In this document: positions 329 to 5,280 of the stretch, in pieces
How the letters are laid out: each line of letters begins with the position of its first letter
How positions within the stretch are numbered: position 1 is the first letter of the stretch
IMG/VR virus record: IMGVR_UViG_2778261453_000016
DNA length: 5,280 nucleotides
Source of the DNA: a virus
Lineage: Duplodnaviria; Heunggongvirae; Uroviricota; Caudoviricetes
Strand: one strand, 5' to 3'
The notes under the pieces: generated by a model
Database searches by the model: none
The model's input: only the letters and a program-made list of their open reading frames with translations
What the model was told of the DNA's origin: nothing
Position numbers and translations under genes: made by a program

Positions 329-880
329 ATGACTCAAGACTATGAACTGGTTGTGAAAGGAGTTCGCAATTTTGAGAATAAAGTGGCGGTAACTGTAGCC
401 TTACGGGACAAAAAACACTTTGACGGTGAAATTTTTGACTTGGACATCTCGCTGGACCGTGTTGAAGGTGCCGCGCTGGAGTTTTATGAGGCAGCAGCCA
501 GAAGGAGCATCAGACAGGTCTTCCTGGATGTTGCTGCCGGGTTATGTGAAGGGGATGAGCAGTCGCCGGAAAAGCGCCCCATAATTTTAGAGGCGCAGAA
601 TGTGTGGATAACCTACAAAGGAAAGCTACCGGGAAGAATTACTGGTTCTCTGAAGACGCCACCGACGGCATTGCGGTCAGAAAAAGATGATATTGAATCG
701 CCCATTGAAAAACTGGAGGGCAGCGTCGCTGATCTGAATAAAAAATTGTCGGTGCTGATTCCTTCTGAAGATGAAAAAAAACGCCGCGATGAGCAGTTTG
801 CGGCGTTTTACGATTATTGCATTGAAGTTACTCGCAGGAATTTTGTGAAGATTTTTGAGGAGGGTAAATCTCTTCAGTAA
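329..880 (+). CDS. Hypothetical protein, N-terminal region YdfR/DUF1327-like (recollection-level assignment), 183 aa from ATG 329
   Basis: ORF track gives 308-880 from a TTG; the first ATG is at 329, preceded by a purine-rich stretch (GAGAAGAGAG), 4 nt after the holin stop. The N-terminus (MTQDYELVVKGVRNFENKV...GAALEFYEAAARRS) resembles the small prophage protein YdfR that sits between holin and lysozyme in E. coli Qin, as I recall it. The C-terminal ~110 aa are charged and have no family I recognise. Confidence 0.6.
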   Translation: MTQDYELVVKGVRNFENKVAVTVALRDKKHFDGEIFDLDISLDRVEGAALEFYEAAARRSIRQVFLDVAAGLCEGDEQSPEKRPIILEAQNVWITYKGKLPGRITGSLKTPPTALRSEKDDIESPIEKLEGSVADLNKKLSVLIPSEDEKKRRDEQFAAFYDYCIEVTRRNFVKIFEEGKSLQ

Positions 881-1088
881 GCTTATTGGCGGACGCTGCA
901 ATTAATTCAGGAAGGTCCGCAAGGTCATCTGTCAGTGGATATGATGAAAAATCGGCGGCAGTTCTGTTAAGAAGCGCTTTAACTAATTCCTTTTCCTTCT
1001 CCGGCATCAAGTTGATTAGAGCTACGACTGCTTGCCTGAGTGCGATTAAATCAGCAAAAGTTTGTTTTGGTAGATTTGTGTAATCCAT
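828..1088 (-). CDS. Hypothetical small acidic protein (86 aa), convergent with and overlapping the 3' end of the 329-880 gene
   Basis: Minus-strand ORF with ATG at 1088-1086, preceded in the mRNA by AGAGGCGACU-AUG (GAGG, 5-nt spacer). The predicted protein is helical and acidic (MDYTNLPKQTFADLIALRQAVVALINLMPEKEKELVKALL...). It overlaps the upstream + gene by 53 nt. No recognisable family. Confidence 0.4.
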   Translation of the reverse strand: MDYTNLPKQTFADLIALRQAVVALINLMPEKEKELVKALLNRTAADFSSYPLTDDLADLPELIAASANKLTEEIYPPQKSSQNSCE

Positions 1089-1201
1089 AGTCGCCTCTGT
1101 GTTTATCAGATTGACATCCTCCTCCCGCCAGTGCCCATCACTGGTGAGGTAAGATTTAACATATCCGGGGATTTGAAGCCGATAAATCCTGATAAATATC
1201 C

Positions 1202-2229
<1,028 letters not shown>

Positions 2230-2412
2230 ATTAATATTAAATCGGATTATTTTTAGCGCTGAATGTGAAATTTAAATAAAAAGGACTCTTCCATGAGTCA
2301 AAATCCTTGAAATCTTAAGGGTAAGATAAAAGGTCATTAGACAGAATGACACGTTTTATTAATAAATAAAGCTATTGTTTCATTCGTGTGTTTTTCTTTA
2401 CAAAAGTAATCC

Positions 2413-2441
2413 TTGCTATGGTTGGTTAATCATGCGTTAAT
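2413..2441 (+). promoter_or_regulatory. Candidate sigma70 promoter of the cold-shock gene (-35 TTGCTA, 17-bp spacer, -10 GTTAAT), with AT-rich upstream element
   Basis: Hexamers at 2413-2418 and 2436-2441. The layout resembles the cspA promoter (TTGCAT/CTTAAT as I recall it). It predicts a 5' UTR of about 140 nt, typical of CspA-family genes. A GGTTTGTTACAAA motif at 2448-2462 resembles the cspA cold box. Confidence 0.4.
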
Positions 2442-2589
2442 GGTGTTCTGGTTTGTTACAAAATTATCTGAAGCAGTCATTGTTATAATTTTATTATTTG
2501 TACCTCTTGAGATTTCCTTGTTGGTTTTTCTCTCTGATATTTTTTTTCGGACCATTCTGCCCAAGGGCTAACTTCTTCAAAAGGTAATA

Positions 2590-2805
2590 ATGATGTCTAA
2601 CAAAATGACTGGTTTAGTGAAATGGTTTAACCCTGAAAAAGGTTTTGGTTTCATCACGCCGAAAGATGGTAGCAAAGATGTGTTTGTCCATTTCTCAGCT
2701 ATTCAGAGCAACGATTTCAAAACGTTAACTGAGAATCAGGAAGTCGAATTTGGTATTGAGAACGGACCTAAAGGCCCCGCGGCTGTTCATGTTGTGGCAC
2801 TTTGA
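2590..2805 (+). CDS. cspI: CspA-family cold-shock protein (CspI/CspB-like), 70-71 aa
   Basis: Translation [41 protein letters not shown]... carries the RNP1 (KGFGFI) and RNP2 (VFVHF) motifs of the cold-shock domain. AAGG Shine-Dalgarno at 2581-2584. The true start may be the second ATG at 2593 (MSNKMTG). Paralog assignment (cspI versus cspB) is from memory and from synteny with the Qin prophage, and is not certain. Confidence 0.9.
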
Positions 2806-3004
2806 GGTAGAAAATATTACAAACCATATTCACTTTAGATGCCCGTGTTGCCATGGTTCTCAGTATAGAACATCATCTTTTGATGTTTCTGACAGGAATC
2901 CTTTCGGGGCAAAATGTATCTTTTGTAAATCAATGATGATTACATTTGATAATATTTCACAATACTTAAATGTTAGCCGTCTGTCGTTAGATTTAAGAAA
3001 GTGA
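2789..3004 (+). CDS. Hypothetical Cys-rich small protein (possible zinc-ribbon, C-x-C-C...C-x2-C), start uncertain
   Basis: ORF 2750-3004 (TTG start); the first ATG at 2789 overlaps the last 17 nt of the csp gene. It contains [12 protein letters not shown]...GAKCIFCKS. Its stop lies 6 nt before a strong intrinsic terminator. No clear Shine-Dalgarno, so translation would need coupling to csp. It may be non-coding 3' UTR. Confidence 0.3.
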
Positions 3005-3009
3005 AAATG

Positions 3010-3032
3010 AAGGCTCCTTCGGGAGCTTTTTT
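3010..3032 (+). terminator. Rho-independent terminator (8-bp stem incl. one G.U, UUCG tetraloop, T6 tract)
   Basis: AAGGCTCC-TTCG-GGAGCTTT followed by TTTTTT (T-run 3027-3032). An A-run on the 5' side means it could work in both directions. It probably ends the csp transcript. Confidence 0.75.
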
Positions 3033-3076
3033 GCTTAGTGTCTAGTCGATGGATACTCACATATTACGGTAACATT

Positions 3077-3307
3077 ATGAAAAAAATAATAGTTTTTTTT
3101 AACTCTGAACCAGCAATGGTAGTGCCAGTGATGACCGGAGTTAACACCATCATGCGTGAATATCCAAATGGCGAAACAACACACCTCACTGTAATGGCTG
3201 CAGGGTTTCCATCTCTGACCGGAGATCATAAAGTCATTTATGTAGCAGCGGATCGACATGTAACTTCAGAAGAAATTCTGGAAGCAGCAATGAGACTCTT
3301 GAATTGA
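3077..3307 (+). CDS. Hypothetical small prophage protein (76 aa from ATG 3077)
   Basis: ORF track 3038-3307. The internal ATG at 3077 gives MKKIIVFFNSEPAMVVPVMTGVNTIMREYPNGETTHLTVMAAGFPSLTGDHKVIYVAADRHVTSEEILEAAMRLLN. It lies just downstream of the terminator. Weak Shine-Dalgarno. No family recognised. Confidence 0.45.
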   Translation: MKKIIVFFNSEPAMVVPVMTGVNTIMREYPNGETTHLTVMAAGFPSLTGDHKVIYVAADRHVTSEEILEAAMRLLN

Positions 3308-3479
3308 TTTGATTCTAATGCATTGATAATAAATGATAATCATCTTTATCTGTTTGTGTGAAATTTAGACCGTCGTATGTTGATTATTGCGATGTTTCAT
3401 CTTATCTTTTATACGTTTGCTCCATATAATTGACACTACTGTGTACCAGGAAAGTCATAACAGACTAAAAGAGGAAATG

Positions 3480-3653
3480 ATGAACATTGAAGAGTTAAAA
3501 ACAAAAACAGAAGCAGATATTTCTGAATATATAACAAAAAAAATCATTGAGCTTAAGAAAAAGACCGGGAAAGAAGTTACCAGTATCCAGTTTACTGCAC
3601 GGGAAAAAATGACTGGTCTTGAAAGCTATGATATCAAGATTGATTTAATCTAG
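3480..3653 (+). CDS. gnsB: GnsA/GnsB-family protein (57 aa)
   Basis: Translation MNIEELKTKTEADISEYITKKIIELKKKTGKEVTSIQFTAREKMTGLESYDIKIDLI closely parallels the recalled E. coli GnsA/GnsB sequences (MNIEELKKQAE...TGKEVSEIRFTAREKMTGLESYDVKI...) and has the same length. GAGG at 3471-3474 is 5 nt before ATG 3480. The ORF track's longer 3387 start is unlikely. GnsB lies next to cspI in the Qin prophage. Confidence 0.75.
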   Translation: MNIEELKTKTEADISEYITKKIIELKKKTGKEVTSIQFTAREKMTGLESYDIKIDLI

Positions 3654-3717
3654 TCTGTTTATAGTATTAGCATCAATTTCTTGTCAGATGCTATTCAACA
3701 ATACAATTTACCCATAA

Positions 3718-3742
3718 ACCTCGTTTTTACGGGGTTTTGTTA
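3718..3742 (+). terminator. Candidate rho-independent terminator downstream of gnsB-like gene
   Basis: AACCTCG-TTTTTA-CGGGGTT stem (6-7 bp incl. one G.U) followed by TTTGTT, about 65 nt after the gnsB-like stop. Confidence 0.4.
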
Positions 3743-3948
3743 TATTTAAACATTACCGAATAGATATAAATCTCGATAGTCGGTGGTATTGGTTGTGTGA
3801 CAATACCTAGTCTTTTCGGTATGCCTGGAGAGAATACAAACGACAGATTATGTAAGGGAAACGCGCTGAAACTTTCACACTTTCATGCTGAGTGATTTGA
3901 CGTTATATTTTTAGCCGCAAGTGAAGAGCAAACGCATGGAGCGACAAA

Positions 3949-4155
3949 ATGCATAAAGATCAATACACTGATGACTCATCCCTGGATCAGGTCCGTGTAA
4001 AAACTATGCTCACTAGCACCATTTCTATGAGTTATCCGGATGTTGTAATTGCATGTATAGAACATCAAGTGTCTCTGGAAGCATTCAGGGCAATTGAGGC
4101 AGCGTTGGTGAAGCACGATAAGAATTCGAAGGATTATTCCCTGGTGGTTGACTGA
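3949..4155 (+). CDS. Hypothetical small prophage protein (68 aa), possibly YbcW/YnfO-like by position
   Basis: ATG at 3949 with GGAG at 3937-3940 (7-nt spacer). Translation [68 protein letters not shown]. Size and position (second gene before the terminase small-subunit gene) match the 68-aa ybcW slot in DLP12, but I cannot confirm homology from memory. Confidence 0.5.
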
Positions 4156-4405
4156 TCACCATAACTGCTAACCATTCAAACTATTTCACCTGTGACAGAG
4201 TCAATATCGCATTCTGTCACTGTCAGGCTAATACAGAACTACAATTCAACTACTGCAATGCCTCGTAATTAGGTGAATTTACAATATCGTCCTGTTCGGA
4301 TGCCAACTGCATTTCTGAGGATAAGGCGTTTATGACTCACATATTTGTCCCACACGCTCGCCAGTCCTGTGCGGGGTGGGAGGGGAGGTAAAGAAACCGG
4401 GATGT

Positions 4406-4600
4406 TCATCCATCATCACTTTGGATTGATGTATATGCTCTCTTTTCTGACGTTAGTCTCCGACGGCAGGCTTCAATGACCCAGGCTGAGAAATTCCCAG
4501 CCCCTTTTTGCTCAAGAGCGATGTTAATTTGTTCAATCATTTGGTTAGGAAAGCGGATGTTGCGGGTTGTTGTTCTGCAGGTTCTGTTCTTCGTTGACAT
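4406..4600 (-). CDS. Small ribbon-helix-helix-like putative DNA-binding protein (64 aa), possibly YlcI/DUF3950-like
   Basis: Minus-strand ORF. The mRNA has GGGG 7 nt before the AUG. Basic N-terminus (MSTKNRTCRTTTRNIR) then a pattern compatible with RHH: beta-strand (IRFPNQMIEQI), helix, G-x-x-S turn (GAGNFSAW), helix (VIEACRRRL). It sits just upstream of cos and is divergent from nu1, the position of ylcI next to nohD in DLP12 as I recall. Confidence 0.5.
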   Translation of the reverse strand: MSTKNRTCRTTTRNIRFPNQMIEQINIALEQKGAGNFSAWVIEACRRRLTSEKRAYTSIQSDDG

Positions 4601-4767
4601 GAGGTTGCCCCGTATTCAGTGTCGCTGATTTGTATTGTCTGAAGTTGTTTTTACGTTAAGTTGATGCAGATCAATTAATACGATACCTGCGTCATAATTG
4701 ATTATTTGACGTGGTTTGATGGCGTAGATGCACGTTGTGACATGTAGATGATAATTATTATCATTTT

Positions 4768-4790
4768 GCGGGTCCTTTCCGGCGATCCGA
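4768..4790 (+). other. cosQ-like region upstream of cosN (by similarity to the lambda right end)
   Basis: GGGTCCTTTCCGGCGATCCGACAGGTTACG directly precedes the cohesive-end sequence and matches my recollection of the lambda right-end/cosQ region. Exact cosQ boundaries are not determinable from sequence alone. Confidence 0.45.
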
Positions 4791-4799
4791 CAGGTTACG

Positions 4800-4811
4800 G
4801 GGCGGCGACCT
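4800..4811 (+). other. cosN cohesive-end sequence GGGCGGCGACCT (lambda-type 12-nt cos overhang)
   Basis: Exact match to the 12-nt lambda cohesive end. The downstream sequence (CGCGG...TTTATGAAAATTTTCCGGTTTAAGGCGTTTCCGTTCTTCTTCG...) tracks the lambda left end nearly base for base. Confidence 0.85.
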
Positions 4812-4851
4812 CGCGGTTTTTCACTATTTATGAAAATTTTCCGGTTTAAGG

Positions 4852-4865
4852 CGTTTCCGTTCTTC
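4852..4865 (+). promoter_or_regulatory. cosB R3 element (gpNu1 binding site), CGTTTCCGTTCTTC
   Basis: R-element consensus CGTTTCC-TTCT at the lambda-equivalent position downstream of cosN. Confidence 0.7.
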
Positions 4866-4906
4866 TTCGCCGTAACCTAATGTTTTTATTTAAAACACCC
4901 CCTGAA

Positions 4907-4922
4907 AAGAAAGGAAACGACA
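4907..4922 (-). promoter_or_regulatory. cosB R2 element (inverted orientation)
   Basis: AGAAAGGAAACGACAG is the exact reverse complement of 4949-4964 (a 16-bp perfect inverted repeat). It matches the lambda R2/R1 arrangement. Confidence 0.75.
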
Positions 4923-4948
4923 GGTGCTGAAAACGGGCTTTTTGGCCT

Positions 4949-4964
4949 CTGTCGTTTCCTTTCT
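4949..4964 (+). promoter_or_regulatory. cosB R1 element, CTGTCGTTTCCTTTCT
   Basis: Perfect inverted partner of R2. It lies about 25 nt upstream of the Nu1 start, as in lambda. Confidence 0.75.
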
Positions 4965-4988
4965 CTGTTTTTGTCCGTGGAATGAACA

Positions 4989-5280
4989 ATGGAAGTCAAC
5001 AAAAAGCAGCTGGCTGACATTTTCGGCGCGAGTATCCGTACCATTCAGAACTGGCAGGAGCAGGGAATGCCCGTTCTGCGGGGTGGTGGCAAGGGTAATG
5101 AGGTACTTTATGACTCTGCCGCCGCCATAAAATGGTATGCCGAAAGGGATGCTGAAATTGAGAACGAAAAGCTGCGCCGGGAAGTTGAAGAACTGAGGCA
5201 GGACAGCGAGACAGATCTCCAGCCAGGGACTATTGAGTACGAACGCCATCGACTTACGCGTGCGCAGGCCGACGCACAGG
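4989..5280 (+). CDS. nu1: Terminase small subunit Nu1 (lambda gpNu1 / NohA-NohD family), N-terminal 97 codons; 3' end beyond window
   Basis: ATG at 4989. Translation [69 protein letters not shown]... is near-identical to the lambda Nu1 N-terminus (winged HTH that binds cosB). The ORF runs in frame to the window end, so it is truncated by the window. Confidence 0.92.

Follow-up and report, generated by a model that had tools for sequence, protein, structure and literature searches.

What are the three short open reading frames (ORFs) that lie between the lysis genes and the cohesive-end site of this phage DNA, and do they belong together? A reading made from the letters alone (the sequence-only reading) had described them as a cluster of small orphan genes in the moron position, which might form a cold- or envelope-adaptation module with the neighboring csp gene. 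The window, by which we mean the whole 5,280-nucleotide stretch analyzed here, does contain three plus-strand ORFs, at 3077–3307 (76 amino acids), 3477/3480–3653 (58/57 amino acids), and 3949–4155 (68 amino acids), and all three fall in the interval from the Rz spanin gene to cosN, as that reading had placed them. However, they are not orphans. They are the already-named, widely distributed lambdoid prophage genes ynfN, gnsB, and ybcW (lambda p79), each of which carries its gene name in RefSeq or K-12. The finding holds up but is mostly ordinary, the genes being already known. We consider it likely, taking the explanation as a whole, that a lambda-like E. coli prophage has two unrelated accessory cassettes here, each of which contributes a part of the interval.

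Identity and Layout of the Interval

At the DNA level, the window shows 100% identity with annotated E. coli prophages and with phage PhiR63_1, and the section 2230–4800 is present (at least 80% coverage) in 574 complete E. coli genomes. To the left is the lysis cassette, with a holin gene (109–324), a lysozyme gene (1202–1735), and the Rz spanin gene (1732–2229). To the right, the cosN cohesive-end sequence GGGCGGCGACCT can be read directly on the plus strand at 4800–4811; in pairwise blastn, the alignment with lambda stops at 4799, equivalent to lambda base 48502 and the end of lambda homology, and the Nu1 ORF starts at 4990. Convergent with ybcW is a minus-strand gene (4406–4600) whose product is 94% identical to K-12 YlcI; PGAP names it “YlcI/YnfO family protein,” and the K-12 annotation gives DUF3950.

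The three small proteins have full-length PHROG matches: YnfN to phrog_3425 (E-value 1.1e-55, residues 1–76 of 76), GnsB to phrog_2301 (2e-39), and YbcW to phrog_657 (1.2e-46, residues 1–68 of 68). The 76 and 68 amino acid proteins, which had been left without a family, are thus YnfN and YbcW/lambdap79. As for the supposed AT-richness of the genes, it is clear for gnsB (GC content 0.310) and the spacers, whereas ynfN (0.407) and ybcW (0.425) are average for the window (0.427).

A Mosaic Junction within the Interval

When the window is aligned pairwise by blastn with K-12 Qin, DLP12, and lambda, a mosaic junction falls at 3790–3825: homology to Qin covers 1192–3790 (91% DNA identity), and homology to lambda/DLP12 covers 3825–4300. 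Left of the junction is a Qin-type cold-shock cassette (cspI-ynfQ-terminator-ynfN-gnsB); right of it is a lambda/DLP12-type cos-proximal segment (ybcW-ylcI). The block 2230–3825 is missing from lambda and DLP12 at the corresponding site, and its GC content is 0.346 versus approximately 0.5 in the flanking lysis genes. Such presence/absence polymorphism between homologous phage backbones, combined with deviant base composition, is the mark of a moron, and the moron position proposed earlier fits. In the prophage Tritos of strain LF82, homologous genes are transcribed in the lysogen, i.e., from a repressed prophage (PMC9928086 and its preprint).

Are the genes also individually promoted or terminated, as had been suggested? 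The block has signals of its own, namely terminators after ynfQ and after gnsB and a cspA-type leader, and the suggestion holds only in part. In our scan of the window, neither ynfN nor ybcW had a promoter or terminator to itself, and promoter-like sites were not in excess (seven found versus 7.5 expected in shuffled sequence); with a scan no better than shuffled sequence, we rejected a separate promoter for each gene. A search for repeats or inverted repeats framing the cluster returned just short, chance-like pairs.

The closest known arrangement left of the junction is the K-12 Qin block cspI-ynfQ-ynfR-ynfN-gnsB (b1552–b1550), which has the same gene order, strand, terminator hairpin, and −10 element as the window. 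The two differ as follows: ynfN is intact (76 amino acids) in the window and a frameshifted remnant in Qin; ynfR encodes 12 amino acids in the window and 21 in Qin; and gnsB is followed by ybcW in the window and by ydfO (DUF1398) in Qin. Right of the junction, the lambda gene for lambdap79 (47738–47944) and DLP12 ybcW encode proteins of the same 68 amino acid length as window YbcW, and all three genes lie approximately 650 nucleotides upstream of cosN and are followed by a ylcI-like region. In contrast, the upstream neighbors are gnsB and its terminator in the window but bor and lambdap78/ybcV in lambda/DLP12, and the window has an extra 90 bp (4301–4390) downstream of ybcW.

The cspI and ynfQ Genes and the Hairpin That Follows Them

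The cassette begins with cspI (2593–2805, plus strand; PF00313, 1.7e-31), which encodes a cold-shock protein 100% identical to K-12 CspI; the gene also bears the name cspI in E. coli A32, whose record is identical. The long 5′ UTR and the cspI coding region together match the cspA-type thermoregulator RNA (Rfam RF01766; 2435–2851, plus strand) over the full model (1–428) with 109.8 bits, versus a gathering score of 78, and an E-value of 2.9e-28. Next is ynfQ (2816–3004, plus strand; PF23641, 1.5e-32), which has an ATT start codon and encodes a small YmcF-like CxxC zinc-ribbon protein, 95% identical to K-12 YnfQ and 68% to YmcF, that PGAP calls a “cold shock small protein.”

Between ynfQ and ynfN, on the plus strand, is an intrinsic terminator or attenuator hairpin (3009–3032) with a UUCG loop and a run of six T residues (minimum free energy −12.4 kcal/mol, z −2.15). 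Hairpin and T-run are kept in nine species representatives, among which one base pair shows a compensatory change (UA to CG). The hairpin overlaps the short ORF ynfR (3007–3045, 12 amino acids here). Since YnfR-SPA in K-12 is strongly cold-induced (PMC6001520), transcripts apparently do pass this hairpin.

A paralogous arrangement exists on the K-12 chromosome, where cspG-ymcF-ymcE-gnsA encode a Csp protein, a zinc-ribbon protein, a 76 amino acid protein, and a 57 amino acid Gns protein. The window proteins are 79% (CspI/CspG), 68% (YnfQ/YmcF), and 63% (GnsB/GnsA) identical to those of the cspG locus, and DNA identity is 73–75% in the csp/ymcF and gns parts, a similarity that the middle gene does not share. 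The chromosomal genes overlap and have no internal terminator, while in the window ynfQ, ynfN, and gnsB are separated by spacers of 72 and 172 nucleotides, with a terminator after ynfQ. Both middle genes encode 76 amino acids and occupy the same position; nevertheless, we rejected homology between YnfN and YmcE, as there is neither a BLASTP match nor DNA homology.

ynfN, an Intact Gene That Is Frameshifted in K-12

YnfN (3077–3307, plus strand) is a small acidic cytoplasmic protein. It is 94% identical to K-12 YnfN over residues 26–76, and the identical protein is annotated as YnfN in E. coli A32. In K-12 the gene carries a 1-bp frameshift, with T7 in place of the T8 run found in the window at 3094–3101, so that the annotated protein has 51 amino acids and starts at Met26. 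The N-terminus is conserved down to 37% identity, an intact ORF of approximately 75 amino acids is found in 44 of 46 species loci, and dN/dS relative to Citrobacter is 0.06–0.16, which indicates purifying selection.

In approximately 40 of the 46 Enterobacteriaceae species loci, csp and/or ynfQ lies directly upstream of ynfN on the same strand; upstream csp or ynfQ is absent from six. The same order recurs in the unrelated phage PHB10, where ynfN again directly follows csp and/or ynfQ, beside an integrase gene and umuDC. Published expression data point the same way. Under AZT induction in K-12, ynfN, ynfQ, and cspI rise 5.8-, 5.9-, and 6.5-fold with matching SspA dependence; in long-term stationary phase of K-12 the expression of the three genes tracks one another; and YnfN and CspI are both expressed in the Tritos lysogen.

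The AlphaFold2 (AF2) model of YnfN (pLDDT 88.9, pTM 0.75) predicts a five-strand sheet and a C-terminal helix. Neither Pfam, NCBIfam, nor PADLOC gave a match to YnfN, and a Pfam search with all 25 family members was also blank. Foldseek returned nothing at an E-value of 0.001 or below (best TM-score in the PDB 0.36; best E-value in BFVD 6e-3, to an uncharacterized protein), and sequence and profile searches of the PDB gave chance-level matches only. As none of the sequence, profile, and fold searches gave YnfN a relative, its role is assigned by association only. On this basis we infer that YnfN is an accessory protein of the csp-ynfQ cold-shock operon, acting through protein-protein contacts. 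It is tempting to go further and propose that the csp-ynfQ cold-shock operons of Enterobacteriaceae have in YnfN a third, conserved component that has gone unrecognized, a protein with a small beta5-alpha fold seen in no solved structure. A conserved attenuating terminator would control its expression, Csp proteins would permit read-through in the cold, and its function would have been missed in K-12 through the frameshift. We hold this larger proposal tentatively and think it rather unlikely to be right in full.

gnsB, a Member of the GnsA/GnsB Family

That the 57 amino acid protein is GnsB-like, as first noticed, is borne out. The product of gnsB (3480–3653, plus strand) matches PF08178 with an E-value of 2.2e-33 and 114.4 bits, versus a cut-off of 27, residues 2–55 aligning with profile positions 1–54 of 54. 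It is 93% identical to K-12 GnsB and 63% to GnsA, and it matches the GnsA structures (PDB 4XO1/4XO2) over its full length (residues 1–56; 4XO2_A, E-value 7.9e-20), with the core FTAREKMTGLESYD conserved between the two proteins. Unlike gnsA, the window gene is carried by a prophage and lacks a ymcE neighbor. A dN/dS of 0.06–0.18 indicates strong purifying selection.

The gene has its own Shine-Dalgarno sequence. A consensus −10 hexamer, TATAAT (3425–3430, plus strand), lies 47 nucleotides upstream of the first gnsB ATG and has a weak −35 element. It is one of two exact matches in the window, a number not significant in itself, and the sole consensus −10 near the three small genes; it is conserved in K-12 Qin. 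As the promoter scan was no better than chance, we regard it as a candidate gnsB promoter. Downstream, an intrinsic terminator (3716–3747, with the hairpin at 3716–3737, plus strand; 9-bp stem and T-rich tail; minimum free energy −11 kcal/mol, z −2.16) marks the right end of the Qin-type cassette.

Over-expression of GnsA/GnsB reportedly increases the unsaturated fatty acids and rescues mutants that are cold-sensitive (Sugai 2001/2004, cited second-hand), and multicopy K-12 gnsA/gnsB suppress the cold sensitivity of a secG null mutant as well as fabA6(Ts). The published rescue used pCAgnsB, which carries K-12 gnsB, and all of these phenotypes refer to multicopy over-expression of the K-12 genes. 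Our search for cold induction of gnsB found no direct evidence of it. Scanning IMG/VR with GnsB for diversity of context yielded only 100% identical copies in a single architecture and was uninformative.

ybcW and Its Lambda Homolog

YbcW (3949–4155, plus strand) is an acidic protein of 68 amino acids, probably helical and encoded in the cos-proximal late region; it is 80.9% identical to both K-12 YbcW and lambdap79 (aligned at lambda 47738–47941). The gene sits where members of its family are expected: in the late region, past the lysis genes and before cos, convergent with ylcI. A GGAG Shine-Dalgarno sequence lies 9 nucleotides upstream, every homolog examined keeps the ORF intact, and dN/dS, calculated from few substitutions, is 0.2–0.45 (approximately 0.26 in the conserved C-terminal 43 codons). 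The AF2 model shows three helices at low confidence (pLDDT 66). Searches of Pfam, NCBIfam, and PADLOC gave no match, sequence and profile searches of the PDB stayed at chance level, and Foldseek with the low-confidence model was blank. The list of YbcW homologs (1360 clusters) consists mostly of ENA contigs of approximately 3.5 kb that are 75–80% identical to the query, which we interpret as reads of lambda control DNA that are full of errors and not as true diversity; the true sequence diversity of the family is small.

In the literature, lambdap79 is a non-essential late-region protein. It has been described as the trigger of the Vulcan NADase (NIR-NADase) defense system: lambda-vir without lambdap79 escapes Vulcan, and co-expression of lambdap79 with Vulcan is toxic (2026 preprint). 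Vulcan activation was shown for the lambda protein and not for window YbcW, which carries 13 substitutions, chiefly in the N-terminal 22 residues; as 13 of 68 residues differ, the sensing may not transfer. K-12 ybcW is transcribed and Hha-induced, and K-12 ybcW-ylcI is listed as a convergent excludon. The gene has no cold or envelope link; its homolog is known only for its non-essentiality and for Vulcan activation.

Weighing the Alternative Explanations

Could the three small genes and cspI nevertheless be a single cold- or envelope-adaptation module carried as a unit, as the sequence-only reading proposed? All 80 IMG/VR loci with an identical GnsB share the order Rz-cspI-ynfQ-ynfN-gnsB-ybcW, and the conservation of 2230–4800 in the complete E. 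coli genomes would also fit. But the 80 loci are near-identical copies rather than independent events, and the mosaic joint at 3790–3825 parts ynfN-gnsB from ybcW. The two halves also occur apart: in K-12 Qin, ydfO comes after ynfN-gnsB, and ybcW is absent; in lambda and DLP12, ybcW is present but csp, ynfN, and gnsB are all missing; and none of the ynfN loci outside Escherichia has ybcW nearby. Moreover, the sole functional data on a ybcW homolog concern phage defense sensing. We therefore regard a single module as improbable. What survives of the cold-module idea is ynfN, through its adjacency to csp/ynfQ and its co-variation with cspI, and plausibly gnsB; ybcW drops out. A still more skeptical view, that one or more of the ORFs, above all ybcW, is a chance ORF or a non-coding stretch and not a protein gene, seems to us very improbable. 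Lambda ybcW is annotated only as “Predicted by GeneMark,” an antisense frame at 3976–4116 is open in both the window and lambda, and the low-confidence model and small real diversity of the YbcW family would agree with such a view. However, Vulcan is activated by plasmid-expressed lambdap79, and phage lacking lambdap79 escape, two findings that imply a gene product; ybcW itself has a dN/dS below 0.5, an intact ORF in the homologs examined, and the GGAG sequence, and ynfN and gnsB are under strong purifying selection.

A different proposal takes YnfN and GnsB as a toxin-antitoxin (TA) pair in which YnfN neutralizes GnsB, just as YmcE (antitoxin) is paired with GnsA (toxin). The GnsA/GnsB family is labeled a TA toxin by Pfam and PGAP, and ymcE-gnsA is listed as a TA pair in reviews citing Wei et al. 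2015. The ynfN gene takes the place of ymcE directly upstream of a gns gene, both products have 76 amino acids, and ynfN and gnsB occur together without csp in three distant loci (L045, L048, and L050). Against this, YnfN has no similarity to YmcE, and ymcE and gnsA overlap by 11 nucleotides, whereas 172 nucleotides separate ynfN from gnsB, a gene with a Shine-Dalgarno sequence and −10 element of its own; gnsB is thus not a toxin gene translationally coupled to an upstream ymcE-homologous antitoxin gene. No gnsB lies within 4 kb in 30 of the 46 ynfN loci, K-12 keeps an intact gnsB beside a frameshifted ynfN with no apparent harm, and PADLOC and TA-domain searches were blank. We judge the TA proposal to be quite unlikely.

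A Proposed Two-Cassette Scheme and Its Meaning

We return to the explanation by two cassettes, which, with the expression steps proposed here included, we think is probably correct. Cassette 1 (approximately 2230–3790) would be a Qin-type cold-shock moron comprising cspI, ynfQ, the terminator/ynfR, ynfN, and gnsB. The cspI promoter would start its transcription, and at low temperature the thermosensing leader of the cspA type would render the mRNA both stable and translatable. Most of the cspI transcripts would end at the hairpin 3009–3032, and a read-through fraction, probably larger in the cold with Csp proteins as antiterminators, would express ynfN. The gnsB gene would probably be transcribed from its own weak promoter (−10 at 3425–3430) and end at its own terminator; abundant GnsB may then shift the membrane lipids toward unsaturated fatty acids and acidic phospholipids, as published for K-12 GnsA/GnsB. 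Cassette 2 (3825 onward) would be a lambda/DLP12-type cos-proximal segment with ybcW convergent with ylcI. YbcW would be a non-essential small protein of lytic growth, probably made from the late transcript, and its homolog in lambda is what the Vulcan NADase defense system senses.

Because K-12 ynfN is frameshifted, knock-out and over-expression screens in K-12 did not probe the real 76 amino acid YnfN. The conservation of csp-ynfQ-ynfN over many enterobacterial genera makes YnfN, with its undescribed predicted fold, a reasonable candidate for a cold-acclimation accessory protein. The main value of the present analysis is one of correction: what looked like a cluster of orphans consists of named, widely distributed prophage genes in two independent cassettes. 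In addition, natural variants of lambdap79 such as window YbcW could help to map what Vulcan recognizes.

Identity of the small genes

The window, 5280 bp in length, lies at the end of the late region of a lambda-like E. coli (pro)phage. Its plus strand encodes a holin of the P21 type (109-324), a YdfR/DUF1327 protein (329-880), a lysozyme (1202-1735) and an Rz/DUF2514 spanin (1732-2229), then a csp gene and three small ORFs at 3077-3307 (76 amino acids), 3480-3653 (57 amino acids) and 3949-4155 (68 amino acids). These are followed by a convergent ylcI-family gene (4406-4600, minus strand), cosN (GGGCGGCGACCT, 4800-4811) and, from 4990 onward, the beginning of Nu1. The sequence-only reading had located the three ORFs correctly and called them orphans. 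We find a match for each: YnfN (phrog_3425, 1e-55), GnsB (PF08178, 2e-33, full length) and YbcW (phrog_657, 1e-46). With these families and the identities to K-12 and lambda proteins, the label of orphan fits none of them. YnfN shares 94% identity with the K-12 protein over residues 26-76, and YbcW is 81% identical both to YbcW of the K-12 prophage DLP12 and to lambda ORF 47738-47944 (lambdap79). The 57 amino acid protein, suggested to be GnsB-like, is indeed GnsB (93% identity to K-12 GnsB, 63% to GnsA) and matches the GnsA crystal structures 4XO1 and 4XO2 (8e-20). That the other two lack a family is true of Pfam, NCBIfam and PADLOC, where neither has a match, and untrue of PHROG, where both have families as well as established names.

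All three are real genes. Of 46 species-representative loci, 44 keep an intact ynfN ORF of approximately 75 amino acids. The dN/dS ratio is 0.06-0.16 for ynfN (comparisons with unsaturated dS), 0.06-0.18 for gnsB and, on few substitutions, 0.2-0.45 for ybcW. The supposed AT-richness applies to gnsB (GC 0.31), the spacers and the block 2230-3825 (0.346), while ynfN (0.407) and ybcW (0.425) are ordinary for the window (0.427).

The stretch 2230-4800 is 100% identical in the E. coli A32 chromosome and phage PhiR63_1, and 574 of the 5426 complete genomes of E. coli carry it at a coverage of at least 80%. RefSeq annotates it as cspI, ynfQ, ynfN, gnsB, a hypothetical protein (named YbcW in the PhiR63_1 record) and a YlcI/YnfO-family protein. 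Upstream, the YdfR/DUF1327 ORF is 183 amino acids long (phrog_2091) versus 103 in K-12; in the A32 record, which is identical in sequence, RefSeq marks it as a pseudogene (incomplete). The 3' end of this ORF is overlapped by an antisense ORF of 86 amino acids (828-1088, minus strand), which has a PHROG family of its own (phrog_2572, 1e-52). An Rz1/RzoQ-type o-spanin ORF with an LTSC lipobox (1925-2179, +1 frame) is embedded in the Rz/DUF2514 gene, as is K-12 rzoQ.

The K-12 reference ynfN is frameshifted

In the alignment of the window with the K-12 prophage Qin, a run of eight T residues (3094-3101) is reduced to seven in ynfN of K-12 MG1655 (b1551); most homologs have eight. The loss of one T accounts for the annotated K-12 start at the internal Met26, which gives 51 amino acids, and the reference ynfN is therefore a frameshifted remnant of the 76 amino acid gene. 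The N-terminal 25 residues (MKKvIVFFNS...) are kept across genera in homologs down to 37% identity and form the first two beta-strands of the AlphaFold model; therefore the 76 amino acid form is the functional gene. Intact forms are also the commoner ones in the protein-cluster database (two clusters of 613 and 688 members, against three 51 amino acid clusters of 109, 156 and 5). An exhaustive HMMER search recovered only 35 relatives among 1.8 billion representative proteins, so the family is small.

The sequence-only reading had proposed profile searches and structure prediction, which yielded a confident fold for YnfN, a weak model for YbcW and no profile match in PDB or Pfam for either. The YnfN AlphaFold2 model (pLDDT 88.9, pTM 0.75; 25-sequence alignment) has beta-strands at residues 2-7, 14-18, 24-28, 34-45 and 51-58 and a C-terminal helix at 64-74. 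Foldseek finds no match to it in PDB or BFVD at E ≤ 0.001, and neither PDB nor Pfam gave a profile match. YnfN is slightly acidic, lacks a signal peptide and any membrane segment, and conserves the polar positions N9, N31, T48-G49-D50-H51, D59-R60 and E66.

A cold-shock cassette with an internal terminator

Upstream of ynfN lie a full-length cspA thermoregulator (2435-2851, Rfam, 109.8 bits) and, directly after cspI, ynfQ (2816-3004), which encodes a YmcF-like CxxC...CxxC zinc-ribbon small protein (PF23641). Because ynfQ is annotated with an ATT start, ordinary ORF finders show it only inside a longer TTG ORF (2750-3004). YnfN homologs were compared in 46 species-representative genomes, apparently all from Enterobacteriaceae. 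In approximately 40 of these, ynfN is directly preceded on the same strand by a csp and/or ynfQ-like gene, the ynfQ match usually ending some 75-95 nt before the ynfN ATG; GnsB follows in approximately 16. In phage PHB10, a 60%-identical YnfN also follows a csp gene, but adjoins an integrase and umuDC instead of lysis genes. Three loci (an unclassified Enterobacteriaceae MAG, Siccibacter and Silvania; YnfN at approximately 50% identity) have a GnsB homolog downstream and neither csp nor ynfQ upstream, which hints at a ynfN-gnsB association independent of csp. Two assemblies with enterobacterial ynfN loci carry the labels Veillonella parvula MAG and Chryseobacterium sp., and a lambda-identical YbcW sits in a record named Campylobacter phage CJLB-4; contamination or mis-binning is the probable source of these labels.

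Are the genes individually promoted or terminated, as had been supposed? A hairpin with a T-run follows ynfQ (3009-3032) and gnsB (3716-3737), and none comparable was found after ynfN or ybcW. Promoter-like sites are at chance level (seven seen, 7.5 expected); the sole consensus TATAAT near these genes (3425-3430, 5' of gnsB) is not significant alone. Between ynfQ and ynfN, the GC-rich hairpin with its T-run is shared by Escherichia, Citrobacter, Raoultella and Klebsiella, and one of its base pairs shows a compensatory change. The ynfR peptide overlapping this hairpin has 12 amino acids in the window (3007-3045, shortened by a TAT-to-TAG change) and 21 in K-12; elsewhere it is different or absent, and it is not conserved outside Escherichia.

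CspA-family proteins are known antiterminators, as reported by Bae and colleagues in 2000. On this basis, Csp proteins may antiterminate at the ynfQ-ynfN hairpin and so permit read-through. Expression of ynfN by read-through fits the published K-12 data. C-terminally tagged YnfR, whose ORF crosses the hairpin, rises strongly after cold shock (PMC6001520), a detection that probably reports terminator read-through and not a functional peptide. Genes cspI, ynfQ and ynfN are induced together by AZT (6.5-, 5.9- and 5.8-fold) and depend alike on SspA (38-, 42- and 51-fold; PMC11228462), and in long-term stationary phase the profiles of cspI and ynfN are almost identical (PMC7406224). The lysogen of the LF82 prophage Tritos (DNA approximately 92% identical over 79% of the 2230-4800 query) transcribes YnfN and CspI, and GnsB is among the morons listed for Tritos.

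For GnsB, the studies of Sugai (2001/2004, as cited in PMC10607373) describe that multicopy gnsA or gnsB raises unsaturated fatty acids and suppresses fabA6(Ts) and a cold-sensitive secG null, and that gnsA over-expression raises acidic phospholipids at low temperature. A relA fadR strain is defective in growth at low temperature, and plasmid-borne gnsB corrects this defect. We did not find direct evidence that gnsB is cold-induced.

Could YnfN and GnsB instead form a toxin-antitoxin pair? Pfam and PGAP label the GnsA/GnsB family as a toxin, with YmcE as the antitoxin of GnsA, and the chromosomal cspG-ymcF-ymcE-gnsA locus is clearly paralogous to the cassette (DNA 73-75% identical in the csp/ymcF and gns parts). 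However, the middle genes ymcE and ynfN are unrelated, and the genes of the chromosomal locus overlap, while 172 nt separate ynfN from gnsB. Moreover, 30 of the 46 ynfN loci lack gnsB, an intact gnsB next to a broken ynfN is tolerated in K-12, and there are no PADLOC or toxin-antitoxin domain matches, so we rate such a pair unlikely. The best-supported statement is that YnfN is an accessory product of csp-ynfQ operons.

YbcW lies across a mosaic joint

Pairwise blastn of the window against Qin, DLP12 and lambda divides the supposed single cluster into two cassettes. The segment 1192-3790, from rrrQ through gnsB and its terminator, matches Qin at 91%; 3825-4300, spanning ybcW, matches lambda and DLP12 at 85%; and 4391-5280 (ylcI, cos, nu1) matches all three at 95-96%. 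The change of type therefore places a joint at approximately 3790-3825, between gnsB and ybcW. Qin has ydfO at the position of ybcW, and the position of the csp block is taken in lambda and DLP12 by bor and a DUF1398 gene. The convergent ybcW/ylcI intergenic region holds an extra 90 bp (4301-4390), where lambda and DLP12 have 3 bp.

The YbcW model is weak (pLDDT 66, three helices), and no fold or sequence relatives were found. Its diversity is small, every phage record being at least 80% identical. Our homolog list is mostly made up of ENA contigs of approximately 3.5 kb, which account for hundreds of clusters (P0085-P0172), each 75-81% identical to the query. They resemble error-rich assemblies of the lambda control amplicon for nanopore sequencing and inflate the apparent family size; one homolog is labelled as a plant (Dovyalis caffra) protein. 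K-12 transcribes ybcW; Hha induces the gene 17-fold, and its transcript overlaps that of the convergent ylcI. Older literature treats lambdap79 as non-essential; it came out as essential only by CRISPRi (PMC10695390), plausibly through a polar effect on the late operon. In a preprint on the NIR-NADase phage-defence system Vulcan, seven of seven lambda-vir escapers had deleted lambdap79 by recombination with Qin, and its co-expression with Vulcan was toxic, so that lambdap79 is the Vulcan activator (September 2026, 10.64898/2026.09.04.749371). The Qin recombination route agrees with our mosaic map.

We found no link of ybcW to cold or the cell envelope, and the proposed cold module thus keeps ynfN and gnsB, in their csp-linked cassette, and loses ybcW, on the other side of the joint. 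The observation itself holds, but the genes were already known and named, and a cold module of ynfN and gnsB largely restates the known Qin and cspG loci. The results are incremental: a frameshift in the K-12 reference ynfN, a csp-ynfQ-ynfN synteny that is broad and includes a conserved internal terminator, and a fold for YnfN that is confidently modelled but unmatched.
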